Virus record (IMG/VR): IMGVR_UViG_2609459834_000012
Span: 1 to 3,816 of that record
DNA length: 3,816 nt
Source of the DNA: a virus
Lineage: Duplodnaviria; Heunggongvirae; Uroviricota; Caudoviricetes
Direction: 5' to 3' (one strand)
The position numbers were made by a program, and so were the translations under genes. Every line of letters begins with the position of its first letter. Within the stretch, counting starts at the first letter, position 1. The notes below the pieces were generated by a model. It did no database searches. It saw nothing but the letters and a program-made list of their open reading frames with translations, and was not told where the DNA came from. Shown here piece after piece: positions 1-3,816 of this stretch.

Positions 1-1029
1 GTGGCTCTTGCCGTGCATGACGCTAACAACACCGCTATCGGGATCTACAACTCTTTTTCACCGACGACAGCGCAGGCCGCAGCGCTTAGCAGCAATGTGA
101 AAATTAACGGGATCACGCGAAAAGTAGCGACAAACTCTACTGCTGACCTTCTGTTAACCGGTACGGCAGGCACGACTATCACGAATGGCTCCGCACGGGA
201 TAAAAACGGCATTATCTGGAATTTTCCCGCAAGTGTAGCGATCGGCGTTGATGGTACTGTGCTGGTGACGGCCACATGTGCGAATAGCGGTTCGGTTGCT
301 GCGATGGCCGGGACTATTACCACCATTAACACACCGACTCGCGGCTGGGTGTCGGTAACCAACCCAGCTTCGGCTACTGTCGGTTCACCAGCAGAAACCG
401 ACGCAGAGCTGCGCATTCGGCAGGGGCAAAGCGTAGCGCTACCCTCTATCACGCCGTTTGAAGGTGTCGACGGTGCAATAGCTAACGTTGCTGGCGTGAC
501 ACGTCACAAGTTGTATGAGAACGACACTGGGGCAACCGACAGCAACGGGCTGCCGCCACACTCAATTTCCGCCATCGTCGATGGTGGAGATGTTACCGAA
601 ATAGCCCAGACCATCAGGGGGAATAAAGGACAGGGAACGGCAACCTACGGGACAACTTCTGTCACGGTGCCGGATACTTACGGTAATCCTCACGTCATCA
701 GTTTTTCACGCTCTACCGATGTGCCAATTTTCGTAGCCATTACCCTGAAAGTTTTTACCGGGTATACCTCTCAAATCGGCGAGCAGATCAAACAGGCTGT
801 TGCCGGCTATATTAATGGCCTGACAATTGGCGACGACGTTCTGCTGAGCCGTATTTATTCCCCGGCAAACCTTGGCGTTGTGAGCGGCGGTAATGCCCGA
901 TATTACGACATTACCGAACTGCTGATCGGTAAGTCGTCTGGCAGCGTATCGGCATCAAACATTGATATTGCCTATGATGCTTCAGCGTCCTGTAGCACCG
1001 CGAATATCAGTATCACGGTGACCTCATGA
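1..1029 (+). CDS. Baseplate J-family protein (P2 gpJ / T4 gp6-like baseplate wedge), 5'-partial at the window edge
   Basis: Frame 1 is open from base 1 to TGA at 1027-1029. The motif ETDAELRIRQ resembles the E-x-D-x-x-LR-x-R motif I recall near residue ~115 of P2 gpJ, and the protein has the Thr/Ala/Gly/Ser-rich character of these wedge proteins. Its stop overlaps the next gene's start (ATGA at 1026-1029). The true start cannot be determined: position 1 is GTG, but the ORF probably continues upstream. Confidence 0.7.
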   Translation: MALAVHDANNTAIGIYNSFSPTTAQAAALSSNVKINGITRKVATNSTADLLLTGTAGTTITNGSARDKNGIIWNFPASVAIGVDGTVLVTATCANSGSVAAMAGTITTINTPTRGWVSVTNPASATVGSPAETDAELRIRQGQSVALPSITPFEGVDGAIANVAGVTRHKLYENDTGATDSNGLPPHSISAIVDGGDVTEIAQTIRGNKGQGTATYGTTSVTVPDTYGNPHVISFSRSTDVPIFVAITLKVFTGYTSQIGEQIKQAVAGYINGLTIGDDVLLSRIYSPANLGVVSGGNARYYDITELLIGKSSGSVSASNIDIAYDASASCSTANISITVTS

Positions 1030-1706
1030 GCAAATACACCGAACTAATCACGAACTACCACGCCACCAAACCTAAATTTCTTGCGCATGTTGATCTGATG
1101 ACCCGGCCGCTTATTGATGTTGCGGCTGCCACCAGAGGGCTGATTACTGCATTTGATATTGACTCTGCGGTTGGTGTGCAACTTGACATTCTGGGATTGT
1201 GGATCGGGCGTAGCCGTGTTGTCAGCCAGCCTATATCAGGTGTCTATTTCAGCTGGGATACCGACGGGCTTGGATATGATCAGGGGGTATGGCAGGGGCC
1301 GTATGACCCGGATTCGGGCTATACGTCACTGAGCGATGACACCTACCGCATCATTCTGAAAGCGAAAATCGCTATCAACAACTGGGACGGTCGGAACGAC
1401 TCTCTGCCTCCCATCCTTGACGCTGCGACTGCAGGCTCAGGCCTGAGGATGCAAATTGTCGACAACCAGGACATGACGATATCGGTTTGGGTATTCCCCG
1501 AGACTGATATTTCTGATGTGTCTCTTGAACTGATTGCCGCTATCAAACAGGGCTATCTCACCGTTAAAGCAGCTGGCGTATGGGCCGGTGATGTTGAAAC
1601 GCCTTCGGTAGAAGCACCATCCGAGGGCTCTAAATTCTTTGGGTTTGATATGGATAACGAATACATCGGCGGGGTCGATGTAGGGGCATGGGGAGTATTA
1701 CTCTGA
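1026..1706 (+). CDS. Phage tail/baseplate protein in the gpI / Mu gp48 position (tail protein I-like)
   Basis: 226-aa ORF. ATG at 1026 overlaps the upstream stop (ATGA), and its own TGA at 1704-1706 overlaps the ATG at 1706 (TGATG). It sits between the baseplate J gene and the tail fiber gene, where P2 and Mu encode gpI / gp48. The family assignment is mainly positional; I do not recognise a diagnostic motif with certainty. Confidence 0.55.
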
Positions 1707-2734
1707 TGGCAAAAAATGACTTTAAAGCGTTTGCAACTGATCGAAATGCCAATGTTATGTCGCAGGAGGAATGGGAAGCGTTGCCTGCGCTTATATCCGG
1801 ATTTACAGCAGGGAAAGCATCCAGTGCGCAAGTCAATAAGGTTATTCGGCAGGCCAGCTTTATTGCTGCAGCTCTGGCCCAGTTTGTAAGTGATAAAACG
1901 CAACGGGATGTGCTTGATAATGGTGATCTGCCCGGTTTTGTTGAATTGCTGGGATCGGGGTTTGCTGTTGAATACCTGAGCCGCAAGAATCCGTTTGGCG
2001 ATATCAAATCGGATGGCACTGTGCAAACGGCTCTCGAAAACCTTGGTATTAAAAACGCATCAACAACACAGGTGGGTTTAGTCCGGTTAACGTCATCGCG
2101 GGTATCGGGTGCAGAGGATATTGCAGCCACAGCTAATGCTGTCGCGCAAAACTATACGGATATAAAGGCGCTGCAAAATAAGACTCAGGATGCAACTACT
2201 ACTCAGAAAGGTATTGTTCAACTTACATCATCAAGGGTTTCCGAATCTGAAACTCTTGCTGCAACCACAAAAGCAGTGGCGTTGAATTATGCGGACATAC
2301 AGGCGTTGCAAGGCAAGACCAATGATGCAACCCCAACAAACAAGGGAATTATCCGCGTATCTGATTCCAGAACATCGACGGAATCTGGTGTTGCTGCATC
2401 ATCACTTGCTGCATCACAAAACTATTCAGATATGAAAGGGTTGTTTGGTCAATGCGGAATGAAATCTAGAAATCTCGGTGTCGTATACACCAACAGCCAG
2501 TCTTTCGCCATATTTGTAAGCGTCAATGCGGTGCTGTCTGACGGTAGTTCATTTCTGAGCGCCAACGTTAATGTGGATGGTAATTCGGCTAATTTTCGCG
2601 GCTCTCAGACAACAAATCTTGCAGGGCAAAGAGCAACTATCGCATTCATGGTTCCTGCCGGTGCGACCTATATTGTGCAGCAGTTTTCAGGAACAGTGTC
2701 AGATGTTACCTGGGTAGAGGTGGATAAAAAATGA
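1706..2734 (+). CDS. Tail fiber protein (receptor-binding fiber with tandem phage-fiber repeats); alternative start at 1688
   Basis: Three tandem ~44-45 aa repeats of the classic tail-fiber motif G-[IV]-x-x-L-[TS]-S-x-x-S-x-x-E-x-x-A-A-T-x-x-A-V, as I recall from P2 gpH and related fibers. The 1706 start (MAKNDFKAF...) is preferred because it overlaps the upstream stop as TGATG and has GGGAG about 10 nt upstream. The ORF-track start at 1688 has its nearest purine-rich run only 1 nt from the ATG. Stop TGA at 2732-2734 overlaps the chaperone start. Confidence 0.85.
2054..2452 (+). repeat. Three in-frame tandem tail-fiber repeat units (~132-135 bp each) inside the tail fiber gene
   Basis: Protein-level repeats: [44 protein letters not shown] / [45 protein letters not shown] / [44 protein letters not shown]. 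The DNA copies are clearly diverged, so this is an old duplication rather than a recent one. Confidence 0.75.
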
Positions 2735-3099
2735 TAACAATGATGAAGTATTACAAAGATGAAAATAACGTCGTATATGCCTACGATGCGTATGGCACAC
2801 AGGATGCTTTTATCAAAGAAGAGCTTGTGCCAATCACCAGAAGTGAGGCTATGGCAATTATTAATCCCCCACCGACTCATGAACAACTCATCCAGGCTGC
2901 TGAAAATGAGCGACAGCGATTACTGTCCGCCGCTGATGCAATTATGCTCGACTGGCGCACAGAGCTGATGCTGGGTGAAATCAGCGATGCCAACAGAGCT
3001 AAACTTTCGGCGTGGCTTTTATATAAGAATCAGGTTAAGGCTGTTGATGTAACAACCGACCCTGAGCATGTTAACTGGCCTGTCATCCCGGAACTTTAA
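2731..3099 (+). CDS. Tail fiber assembly chaperone (Tfa; Mu U / P2 gpG / lambda Tfa family)
   Basis: 122-aa ORF. The C-terminal region [58 protein letters not shown] follows the conserved Tfa pattern, including the terminal W-P-x-x-P. ATG at 2731 overlaps the tail fiber stop (ATGA), with GAGG/GGA 6-10 nt upstream. In-frame alternative starts exist at 2740 and 2743. Stop TAA at 3097-3099. Confidence 0.85.
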
Positions 3100-3105
3100 A
3101 CCATA

Positions 3106-3150
3106 CTGGTCTTGCTACATCAATGCGCATCAGCAAGACCAGCTATTTTC
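3106..3150 (+). terminator. Candidate intrinsic terminator of the tail operon: 11-bp perfect stem, 15-nt loop, short T tract
   Basis: CTGGTCTTGCT (3106-3116) and AGCAAGACCAG (3132-3142) are exact reverse complements. The loop ACATCAATGCGCATC contains the palindrome ATGCGCAT (3123-3130). The stem is followed by CTATTTTC, and the element begins 7 nt after the chaperone stop. The loop is long and the T tract is only 4 T, so terminator strength is uncertain; it could instead be a protein-binding inverted repeat. Confidence 0.4.
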
Positions 3151-3184
3151 AAACTAAGCAACATAGCCCTCCGCTACTCCTCCT

Positions 3185-3204
3185 GTTCGAAACGAACCTT
3201 TTTT
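3185..3204 (+). other. Short palindrome GTTCG-AAA-CGAAC followed by a T6 run (weak terminator-like element or binding site)
   Basis: GTTCG (3185-3189) / AAA / CGAAC (3193-3197), then C and TTTTTT (3199-3204). The stem is only 5 bp. The T run leads straight into TATAAC (3204-3209), a possible -10 hexamer for the invertase gene with no convincing -35 partner. Confidence 0.3.
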
Positions 3205-3236
3205 ATAACCATCAAAAATCTGGTGATGCTTCGCCG

Positions 3237-3263
3237 TTTCTCCTGTTTTCATAACAGGAGAAA
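3237..3263 (+). promoter_or_regulatory. Perfect 11-5-11 palindrome overlapping the invertase Shine-Dalgarno (candidate SD-sequestering hairpin or operator)
   Basis: TTTCTCCTGTT (3237-3247) / TTCAT / AACAGGAGAAA (3253-3263) are exact reverse complements. The right arm contains the SD AGGAG (3256-3260), 7 nt upstream of the invertase ATG at 3268. The left arm carries the anti-SD-like CTCCT. Confidence 0.45.
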
Positions 3264-3267
3264 TCCC

Positions 3268-3816
3268 ATGATTTACGGTTATGCCCGAGTATCAACAAAC
3301 CACCAGGACACTGAATTGCAACTAACGGCGCTCAAGTCAGCGGGTTGTGAGAAAATTTTTGAAGAGCATGCCAGCGGGAGGAAATCGAATCGGCCGGTTC
3401 TAAAACGGCTGATCGCCATTATGCAGCCGGGGGATGAACTGGTGGTCTGGAAGCTGGACAGGATAGGCCGCAACGTTCTGCATGCGCTGTTGATGTTCCA
3501 GCAGTTACAGGAAAAGGGTATCAACTTCCGCAGTATTACCGATGGCGTGGATCTCAAAACAGCCAGCGGCCGCTATAACTTTCGTAACATCCTTTCCGCA
3601 GCACAATATGAATCTGATCTTAATAGCGAACGTACCTTAGCAGGGCTGGCCGTAGCCAGGGCAAAAGGGCGAGTTGGTGGTCGCAGGCCTAAGTTCACGG
3701 ATGAGCAATGGCGGGAAATGGGGGAGCGGATGGCAACCGGTGAATCACGACAAAGCGTATCAAAAACGTATGGAGTAGGGCTCTCAACTCTGTATAAAAA
3801 GTTTCCAGCTAGCTGA
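3268..3816 (+). CDS. Small serine recombinase, DNA invertase of the Hin/Gin/Cin/Pin family
   Basis: 182-aa ORF starting MIYGYARVSTNHQ, with the catalytic serine in the conserved YxRVST motif near the N terminus. Further matches to the family as I recall it are VVWKLDRIGR, VGGRRPK and the C-terminal helix-turn-helix GVGLSTLYKKFPAS (Hin and Pin end similarly). Strong SD AGGAG is 7 nt upstream; stop TGA at 3814-3816. The ORF-track version starting at 3112 uses a TTG inside the terminator hairpin and is almost certainly an artefact of the open frame. Confidence 0.9.
   Translation: MIYGYARVSTNHQDTELQLTALKSAGCEKIFEEHASGRKSNRPVLKRLIAIMQPGDELVVWKLDRIGRNVLHALLMFQQLQEKGINFRSITDGVDLKTASGRYNFRNILSAAQYESDLNSERTLAGLAVARAKGRVGGRRPKFTDEQWREMGERMATGESRQSVSKTYGVGLSTLYKKFPAS

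Follow-up and report, generated by a model that had tools for sequence, protein, structure and literature searches.

Among the known systems closest to the locus analysed here are the tail-fibre inversion switches of e14, a cryptic prophage of E. coli K-12, and of phage Mu. In e14, two cassettes (stfP-tfaP and tfaE-stfE) lie in a 1797-bp P segment with canonical inner half-sites, GGTTTGGGAGAA and TTCTCCCAAACC, and this segment has been shown to invert (PMC12529663). It is also inverted in trans by PinQ, an enzyme of the cryptic prophage Qin (PMC12529663), and inversion continues in a prophage of E. coli EC958 whose own invertase is truncated, presumably through the enzyme of another prophage (PMC4134206). 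The G segment of Mu follows the same logic, with 26-bp sites reading TTATCCAAAACC TC GGTTTACAGGAA and TTCCTGTAAACC GA GGTTTTGGATAA.

The window, by which we mean the whole stretch of 3,816 nt that was analysed, forms the right-hand end of a myovirus-type prophage of E. coli that sits in a phi80-type att site adjoining yciI. We consider it likely that this end carries a decayed Pin/Gin-type tail-fibre inversion switch from which the reverse cassette is gone, leaving the fibre probably stuck ON next to an intact invertase. Three genes, all on the plus strand, make up the region, with 168 nt from the chaperone stop to the invertase start; this layout had been described correctly in the first-pass annotation and agrees with the ORF list and Pfam.

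1706 to 2734, plus strand: tail fibre gene, 342 aa (ORF list; Pfam PF03406; same call in the source contig).
2731 to 3099, plus strand: tail fibre assembly chaperone, 122 aa (Pfam PF02413 Caudo_TAP, E = 2.6e-18).
3268 to 3816, plus strand: intact small serine DNA invertase of the Gin/Pin/Hin/Cin family, 182 aa (Pfam Resolvase and HTH_7).

The fibre gene, for which an alternative start ATG exists at 1688, is composed of an N-terminal constant part (1706 to about 2044) and an exchangeable receptor-binding part (2045–2734) with Phage_fiber_2 repeats, and its homology to many phages and prophages breaks off at about 2040–2047. The earlier impression that the minus strand holds no credible cassette was borne out, in that a complete one is absent from it: where a full segment has two fibre C-termini and their chaperones in opposite orientations, the window has a single cassette.

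A convincing pair of crossover sites had at first not been seen. Alignment of the window with two-cassette relatives, the one approach by which the pair was found, places two inverted 26-bp sites as follows.

2031 to 2056, unstranded: left crossover site, CTCTCGAAAACC TT GGTATTAAAAAC (outer half, core, inner half; PWM and e14 homology).
3183 to 3208, unstranded: right crossover site, CTGTTCGAAACG AA CCTTTTTTATAA (inner half, core, outer half; alignment to relatives).

The left site sits within the fibre gene, at codons 109–117, and its outer half and core are identical to those of the e14 left site; the first-pass annotation missed it by one base (AAACC-TT-GGTAT instead of GGTTT). The right site, near the invertase gene, aligns column by column with TTCTCCCAAACC AA CCTTTTTTATAA of two-cassette relatives, and its core AA is TT on the opposite strand, the pair being inverted and sharing the same core dinucleotide. 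The two sites bracket the distal fibre and the chaperone at the positions where related prophages carry theirs, and the window thus contains the very arrangement, inverted sites of about 26 bp around this region, that the annotation had itself named as evidence against its view.

The sites were scored with a half-site matrix derived from 51 canonical relatives, a training set in which both outer halves of the window also occur. By this measure the best two 26-mers of the window are the left site (17.8 bits) and the right site (9.3 bits), followed by a third at 1.4 bits. Among 300 shuffles the score of the left site was reached 0 times and that of the right site by 0.13 sites per shuffle. The right site falls well short of the approximately 25 bits computed for a canonical right site and has no strong half (3.2 + 6.1 bits), which would be expected to lower recombination. 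The inner halves are the weak part of both sites: at 4.4 and 3.2 bits they belong to the top 0.3% and 0.5% of window 12-mers, as against about 18.7 bits and a median of 12/12 consensus positions for the inner halves of two-cassette loci, which in intact relatives are perfect inverted copies, GGTTTGGGAGAA and TTCTCCCAAACC. They are nevertheless more site-like than chance and clearly outscore the inner halves of single-cassette loci of the L005/L006 type, and by our count each has 8/11 of the specified positions of the published invertase-site consensus (PMC4134206, Table 3).

The two sites agree at 14/26 positions, as counted from the sequence, and the pair was not listed in a generic inverted-repeat search of the window because agreement is limited to these positions and the inner halves are not complementary. 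One might take this omission, together with the coding constraint that also acts on the left outer half (..ALENL), as a sign that there are no real sites here, the 26-mers having arisen by chance or being conserved coding or flanking DNA and the invertase being unrelated to the fibre genes. This seems highly improbable: 58 two-cassette relatives, and e14 as well, have their sites at the homologous positions, the two sites of the window are the top PWM matches, far above the third, and homology to other prophages stops at the core dinucleotides left and right, although the right side is non-coding.

Between the chaperone and the invertase genes, four further features can be recognised.

3100 to 3149, minus strand: relic of a reverse-oriented chaperone gene now lost, from its 3′ end (49 nt align with the 3′ end of the reverse chaperone gene of locus L002 at 85.7% identity, E = 5.5e-11).
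3106 to 3142, plus strand: hairpin with an 11-bp stem and a 15-nt loop, followed by CUAUUUUC (−17.2 kcal/mol, z = −3.9 versus shuffles).
3150 to 3182, unstranded: spacer from the relic to the right site (no BLAST-detectable homology past the relic).
3236 to 3264, plus strand: hairpin with a 12-bp stem (main helix in the fold of 3205–3275).

On the minus strand the reading frame of the relic extends into the terminal part of the forward chaperone gene, just as it does in intact tail-to-tail pairs, and the stretch 3099–3196 is 100% identical in all six contexts carrying the window cassette. These 50 nt of minus-strand sequence at 3100–3149 had been overlooked in the first-pass annotation. We also considered that the relic might reach up to the right site, as the result of a deletion at a quasi-site in the reverse chaperone gene, but do not claim this, since BLAST homology covers only about 50–60 nt and an extension by eye was unconvincing. 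As a test for deletion at a pseudo-site, a two-cassette parent was sought for the class in which the chaperone stop TAGG is followed by AA and the outer half; it was absent among the fetched loci. The hairpin inside the relic may act as the terminator of the fibre operon. The second hairpin, which is kept in relatives and has its counterpart in the repeat pair labelled IR3 immediately before phi80 pinL, belongs to a fold of −23.1 kcal/mol as a whole (z = −5.8) and holds the invertase Shine–Dalgarno sequence (AGGAG, 3256–3260) in its 3′ arm; it probably limits translation of the invertase.

The invertase itself carries a catalytic domain (Pfam PF00239, E = 5.6e-39) with the YxRVS motif, in which Ser9 of YARVST aligns to residue 9 of Gin (Ala in the 3UJ3 chain, Ser in 4M6F), and a C-terminal HTH (Pfam PF02796, residues 138–181), and it is collinear with, and of the size of, known invertases (about 180–195 aa). 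Its matches to Gin and Pin are unambiguous, the alignment with Gin (PDB 3UJ3) running ungapped over residues 1–181 (E = 2.5e-56). At the DNA level the gene is 99.5% identical to that of phage HK225 and 94.7% to phi80 pinL, and the protein is identical at 181/182 residues to invertases beside two-cassette segments that are found in both orientations. The enzyme is almost certainly active. In a scan of the 5′ region of the gene for a Fis-bound recombinational enhancer, the strict Fis-like 15-mer at +78 common to Mu gin and e14 pin proved not to be conserved in the window, Fis sites being very degenerate; despite this, invertase genes 181/182 identical to that of the window adjoin flipping segments.

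The invertase gene is the last of the prophage. In the source contig, JNPE01000036.1 of E. coli 2-156-04_S1_C3 (assembly GCA_000703505.1), it is followed by 137 nt matching the phi80/HK225 att region and then by host DNA, of which yciI-tonB-yciA is 99.2% identical to E. coli; the contig runs 62 kb past the window in the gene order yciI, tonB, yciA, yciB, yciC, ompW and trp genes. The prophage therefore ends 137 nt past the window, at host yciI, and there is no invertible DNA downstream, which refutes the earlier suggestion of an invertible segment beyond the window. That a second cassette and a second site should lie just past the edge has nothing in its favour except that the window ends at the invertase stop codon, and we give the idea practically no credence: att-proximal DNA and host yciI onward occupy this position, and in relatives the entire segment lies upstream of the invertase.

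How the window came to its present state is best seen against its relatives. Intact ones have a segment of 1.8–1.9 kb in which two fibre C-termini and two chaperones stand tail to tail. A survey of 83 related loci yielded 58 with two cassettes, 12 with short segments, most of these with non-canonical inner halves, and 13 that are orphan-like, so that shortened or orphaned loci make up about 30% (25/83). Of the four explanations initially put forward, the one in best agreement with the reverse-chaperone relic, the weakness of the inner half-sites and the abundance of shortened relatives is a collapsed switch that has left its invertase an orphan. We infer an ancestor with two cassettes, which would have resembled the intact layout, with both fibre C-termini and both chaperones tail to tail between 26-bp sites. 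The reverse cassette would then have been lost except for about 50 nt of the reverse chaperone 3′ end and a spacer of about 33 nt. Both crossover sites are still present at the homologous positions, inverted and with matched cores (TT/AA). The remaining 1152-bp segment would probably invert rarely or never, so that the fibre gene would be effectively fixed ON. Such a collapsed switch is a common decay state of a well-known system and, as such, an ordinary case.

The first-pass annotation had also raised an ON/OFF switch in which inversion splits the fibre gene. A switch of this type would flip 2045–3194 at an appreciable rate between the full fibre and a 119-residue stub, and some induced virions would then be without this fibre. 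The placement and orientation of the sites fit such a scheme, as they flank exactly the distal fibre and chaperone with identical core dinucleotides, and inversion would indeed cut the fibre, giving residues 1–113 followed by RFEQEE and a stop (6 codons). The invertase is intact, GTTCGAAACGAAC is conserved between diverged relics, and junctions fall precisely at the cores in many backbones. What was missing is the flipped form itself. The predicted flipped junctions (CTCGAAAACCTT joined to CGTTTCGAACAGGAGG, and GCGTTTTTAATACC joined to AACCTTTTTTATAACC), synthesised in silico, were searched for in 5,426 complete genomes of E. coli and gave no match with a query coverage of 80% or more; few genomes carry the cassette, and this makes the test a weak one. 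The OFF-state protein was not found in a collection of 15 billion proteins, exact-sequence look-ups being of low power. An exact-pattern scan with the inner left half-site returned only unrelated chance matches in metagenomes, none in species-representative genomes, and 7 loci in the viral collection, whose left junctions were all native.

The orientation of existing copies points the same way. The cassette lies beside an invertase in six contexts (the window, L007, L008, L009, L018 and L099, the left junction being deleted in L009 and L018), and all are ON relative to the invertase, in a small sample of about six contexts with only three invertase-linked copies among complete genomes. The source contig is unbroken across both sites, and hundreds of source-flagged partial database proteins end at the left site. 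As a positive control, two-cassette relatives with a 181/182-identical invertase were found in both orientations, while the window segment was seen in one, again with low power. Considering further that the right site has no strong half, that an OFF state has no obvious benefit and that the invertase is being lost in some lineages with the cassette, we regard a working ON/OFF switch as unlikely.

Returning to the collapsed switch, its cassette has a distribution of its own. Both E2348/69 and another prophage of the source strain carry it beside an invertase of which just the C-terminal remnant is left. In other prophages the left inner half of the window is found with four different outer halves, identity beginning at the core TT, and the right inner half has five different outer partners, likewise joined at the core; the junctions fall exactly at the core dinucleotides in unrelated prophage backbones. 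This pattern is most simply explained if the sites served site-specific exchange after the collapse, and the invariance of GTTCGAAACGAAC (13 bases, inner half and core) between two relic lineages otherwise only 73% identical hints at a constraint on this sequence; like the better-than-chance inner halves, both observations speak against a frozen switch. The spread of the cassette is recent, too recent for an informative Ka/Ks of the invertase in single-cassette lineages. Because four left and five right outer half-sites adjoin the 1152-bp unit exactly at the cores, its relic being 100% identical, and because the unit occurs twice in the source strain, one could go further and see in the one-cassette segment a mobile unit which Din-family invertases swap between co-resident unrelated prophages at weak "quasi" half-sites, with ON/OFF flipping still taking place at a low rate; we hold this to be a rather doubtful extension.

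It is somewhat easier to imagine, though still speculative, that the orphan invertase is kept for its action in trans, the local segment being dead and the enzyme flipping Pin-type segments of other prophages in the cell. The window invertase may plausibly act in this way, given the precedents of PinQ on the e14 P segment (PMC12529663) and of inversion in EC958 despite a truncated invertase (PMC4134206), and an intact invertase persists beside short or absent segments in 25/83 relatives, including phi80 and HK225. Against this, the source strain yielded no target segment: the one other fibre locus seen there (L111) retains a left site but lacks a right one, and its invertase is reduced to a remnant. 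Moreover, the window invertase may persist through recent collapse alone, the relic being 100% identical across contexts. Action in trans and a collapsed local switch are compatible with each other.

For annotation, these observations mean that an invertase beside a single fibre cassette need not be a mystery, and that the sites of a decayed Pin-type switch may be recognisable by homology to relatives only, not as an inverted repeat. The shortened or orphan forms, about 30% of the family, usually keep an intact invertase, which fits the recent evidence for trans action of orphan Pin enzymes, and the core-dinucleotide junctions with foreign backbones suggest that invertases help to shuffle receptor-binding modules between unrelated phages. 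Neither the high share of decayed forms nor the shuffling of modules is new in kind.

Among known systems, the lambdoid phages phi80 (pinL) and HK225, which have degenerate fibre remnants, possess an invertase gene and a right outer half-site almost identical to those of the window, and share with it an att site at yciI, the invertase as last gene before att and a hairpin over the ribosome-binding site. They differ in having the right site only, together with pseudogene fragments or unrelated genes, and no left site in a fibre gene was recognisable within 3.5 kb upstream of their right site. The window is thus not an orphan invertase with a lone site of the phi80 pinL/HK225 type, since it has a strong left site (17.8 bits) inside the intact fibre gene of a contractile-tail prophage. 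With Mu, the window has in common the fold and length of the invertase (E = 2.5e-56 to PDB 3UJ3), but Mu has a TC/GA core and a 3 kb segment in which S/U and S′/U′ are both complete. The inversions in EC958 (PMC4134206) and of e14 by PinQ (PMC12529663) likewise involve Din-family invertases, E. coli prophages and 26-bp sites; in contrast to the window, these segments have two cassettes and both orientations were seen in reads or by qPCR (PMC4134206, PMC12529663). It is e14 that has the same layout as the window, with a constant fibre N-terminus, a left site in the fibre gene, a chaperone, a right site some 70 nt ahead of the invertase start codon, and the invertase. Both have CTCTCGAAAACC TT as left outer half and core, and PinE is 55% identical to the window invertase over 181 residues without a gap. 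Where e14 has two cassettes in 1797 bp between canonical inner halves, the weak inner halves of the window enclose 1152 bp with a single cassette and the 50-nt relic.

The window is probably a collapsed Pin-type switch with an intact invertase, its segment probably being fixed in the orientation found here (ON), which encodes the full tail fibre. It corresponds to bases 1-3816 of contig JNPE01000036.1 (assembly GCA_000703505.1, Escherichia coli 2-156-04_S1_C3) and contains five genes, all on the + strand:

1-1029 (+): baseplate J gene, 5′-truncated at the contig edge
1026-1706 (+): DUF2612 baseplate-wedge gene
1706-2734 (+): tail fibre gene with Phage_fiber_2 repeats
2731-3099 (+): tail-fibre assembly chaperone gene
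3268-3816 (+): serine recombinase (invertase) gene, 182 residues, Resolvase and HTH_7 domains

Gene and domain calls bear out the layout of the first-pass annotation, including the 168-nt gap between chaperone and invertase. Since the baseplate J homologues are 1200 nt long, of which the window keeps the last 1029, and the ORF is cut by the contig end, the GTG at position 1 is no genuine start codon. Downstream of the invertase, the source contig has 137 nt matching phages phi80 and HK225 up to the annotated attP core and next, in DNA 99.2% identical to E. coli chromosomes, the host genes yciI, tonB, yciA, yciB, yciC, ompW and the trp genes. The invertase is thus the last prophage gene, and an invertible segment downstream of the window, which had been considered as an explanation for the single cassette, is excluded by the att-type DNA and host genes found there.

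The first-pass annotation had noted one cassette with an adjacent invertase, which stands, and no convincing pair of crossover sites, which does not: both sites could be located, at homologous positions, by alignment with relatives. Each consists of an outer 12-nt half, a core dinucleotide and an inner 12-nt half facing the segment:

2031-2056: left site, CTCTCGAAAACC TT GGTATTAAAAAC, outer half and core identical to e14; 17.8 bits (inner half 4.4 bits, top 0.3% of the window's 12-mers)
3183-3208: right site, CTGTTCGAAACG AA CCTTTTTTATAA, outer half and core identical to relatives; 9.3 bits (outer half 6.1 bits; inner half 3.2 bits, top 0.5% of the window's 12-mers)

The sites are mutually inverted, with the core dinucleotide TT in both on opposite strands, and enclose exactly the distal fibre and the chaperone. 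When the window was scanned with a half-site matrix trained on 51 canonical loci (training half-sites: median 13.7, maximum 18.7 bits), they gave the two highest scores, the third-best 26-mer reaching 1.4 bits; in 300 shuffles the left-site score was never attained and the right-site score by 0.13 sites per shuffle. As both outer halves are present in the training set, independent information comes from the inner halves only. T2, T4 and the greater part of the A-tract are retained in both of these, and of the 11 positions specified in the published consensus (Table 3, PMC4134206) each matches 8 (both our own counts); the canonical consensus inner half TTCTCCCAAACC scores about 18.7 bits. Judged by sequence, the weakness lies in the right site, which lacks a strong half while every canonical site has at least one. 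The two sites agree with each other at 14/26 positions (own count), and it is for this reason that they escaped the first reading as well as a generic inverted-repeat search of the window, which did not list the pair. Together, the right inner half and core are also a short palindrome, GTTCG AAA CGAAC, with six Ts after it (3185-3204), which a terminator scan flags. These 13 bases are unchanged in the relic copy of a related locus, L109, otherwise only 73% identical.

Two cassettes are present in AR_0118 and GPEC60-12-649, close E. coli prophages at the identical chromosomal site: between the DUF2612 gene and their near-identical invertase they carry two fibre C-termini and two chaperones, arranged tail to tail. 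The 3′ end of AR_0118's reverse chaperone gene has a counterpart at 3100-3149 (-) of the window, with 85.7% identity in a 49-nt alignment (E = 5.5e-11). This relic of the lost cassette translates into a typical chaperone C-terminus, and its frame extends into the terminal part of the forward chaperone gene, an overlap shared with intact tail-to-tail pairs. For the 33 nt between relic and right site no origin was detectable. A hairpin within the relic (3106-3142, 11-bp stem, z = -3.9), with a short U-rich stretch after it, is a candidate that may, we infer, serve as terminator of the fibre operon.

Among 83 loci with this invertase family, 58 have a segment of at least 1.4 kb, mostly ~1.8-1.9 kb, with the left site within the fibre gene, the right site ~70 nt upstream of the invertase start and inner halves matching GGTTTGGGAGAA / TTCTCCCAAACC at a median of 12/12. 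Cassettes adjacent to the right site of one locus often recur reverse-complemented beside the left site of another, and entire segments align in reverse between loci, so the family flips in nature; the invertases of loci seen flipped are 181/182 identical to that of the window. Flipping here would shorten the fibre to 119 residues (...ALENL-RFEQEE-stop; OFF). All invertase-linked contexts of this cassette are ON (6/6), the left junction having been lost by deletion in two of the six, L009 and L018. None of 5,426 complete E. coli genomes had a match to the synthetic flipped junctions with at least 80% query coverage. Five predicted OFF-state proteins are missing from a collection of 15 billion proteins in which the ON proteins do occur, and none of the proteins retrieved by homology to the 119-residue OFF protein ends in RFEQEE. 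The window's contig is unbroken across both sites. Each of these tests is low-powered because few genomes carry this cassette, but jointly they speak for a switch held ON, with flipping absent or nearly so. What the OFF-protein search did return included clusters of 111-113-residue sequences, hundreds in total, that their sources mark as partial (database proteins P0043, P0094, P0095, P0097 and P0098). P0043 (113 aa, 263 members), the sole cluster read, terminates exactly at ...ALENL, i.e. at the left crossover site, which suggests that assemblies of inverting loci break there; in short-read assemblies, such clusters could offer an inexpensive sign of active inversion.

The distribution of the cassette argues against a wholly dead switch. 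The core-to-core stretch 2045-3194 also occurs in three E. coli P2-like prophages (23AR0998, EcPF16 and Z1323HEC0011), in prophage L099, which has a different fibre N-terminal region, and in several viral contigs; across all of them the relic is 100% and the cassette 92-98% identical. On the left, identity sets in at the core and is preceded by four different outer halves (CTCTCGAAAACC, TTCTCACATACC, TTCTCAAAAACA, TTCTTTCATACC); on the right, it ends at the core, with five different outer halves beyond (CCTTTTTTATAA, CCTTTTTAAAAC, CGTTTTGGAAAA, CGTTTAAGAAAA, CCTTTGAAATAT). In strain AR_0128 a 73%-identical relic, with GTTCGAAACGAAC intact, follows a different forward cassette. Core-precise junctions with varied outer halves speak for use of the sites in exchange events that came after the collapse. 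Such exchange would be the main argument against a wholly dead switch, and the mosaic pattern suggests that invertases swap receptor-binding cassettes between unrelated prophages. The source strain itself has a second copy, L111, in a P2-like prophage (contig JNPE01000026.1, about 7037-8105; 96.7% identical over window 2040-3098), with the left site TTCTCACATACC TT GGTATTAAAAAC present and the right site absent; its chaperone gene is followed by an invertase C-terminal remnant only, a decay similar to that in E2348/69. The two co-resident copies are possible substrates for exchange or large inversions.

The remaining loci of the family comprise 12 with short segments, mostly with non-canonical inner halves, and 13 with the right site only (phi80- or HK225-like). 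In a recurrent single-cassette class (L005, L006, L051, L059, L063) the chaperone stop is fused directly to the core (..ATAGG AA CCTTTTTTATAA); the chaperone sequences have diverged and most of the invertases have kept their full length (that of L006 is frameshifted). This class looks like an old, stable one-cassette arrangement. L018 (IMGVR_UViG_2609459819_000002, about 3700-3900) keeps cassette, relic, right site and invertase, the fibre N-terminal part and left site being gone; homology begins at window 2100, with unrelated sequence upstream, and we regard it as another decay state. In the P2-like L009 (E. coli Z1323HEC0011, 2222-4591) a capsid scaffold gene is directly followed by the distal fibre cassette, chaperone, relic and invertase, a join that implies a large late-gene deletion ending inside the cassette. 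A full-length invertase is still encoded in most short or right-site-only loci. Orphan or foreign Pin enzymes are able to flip segments of other prophages (PMC12529663, PMC4134206): PinQ inverts that of e14 (PMC12529663), and a prophage of EC958 whose invertase is truncated nonetheless occurs in both orientations (PMC4134206). By analogy, the window invertase may work in trans.

Just upstream of the invertase start codon lies a hairpin (3236-3264, 12-bp stem) whose 3′ arm includes the Shine–Dalgarno sequence (AGGAG, 3256-3260). When 3205-3275 is folded (z = -5.8), this stem forms the main helix; it is retained in relatives and may keep invertase translation low. Its counterpart in phi80 is the annotated repeat pair IR3. 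The Mu sites read TTATCCAAAACC TC GGTTTACAGGAA and TTCCTGTAAACC GA GGTTTTGGATAA, while e14 has an arrangement like that of the two-cassette relatives, with the sites CTCTCGAAAACC TT GGTTTGGGAGAA and TTCTCCCAAACC AA CGTTTATGAAAA.
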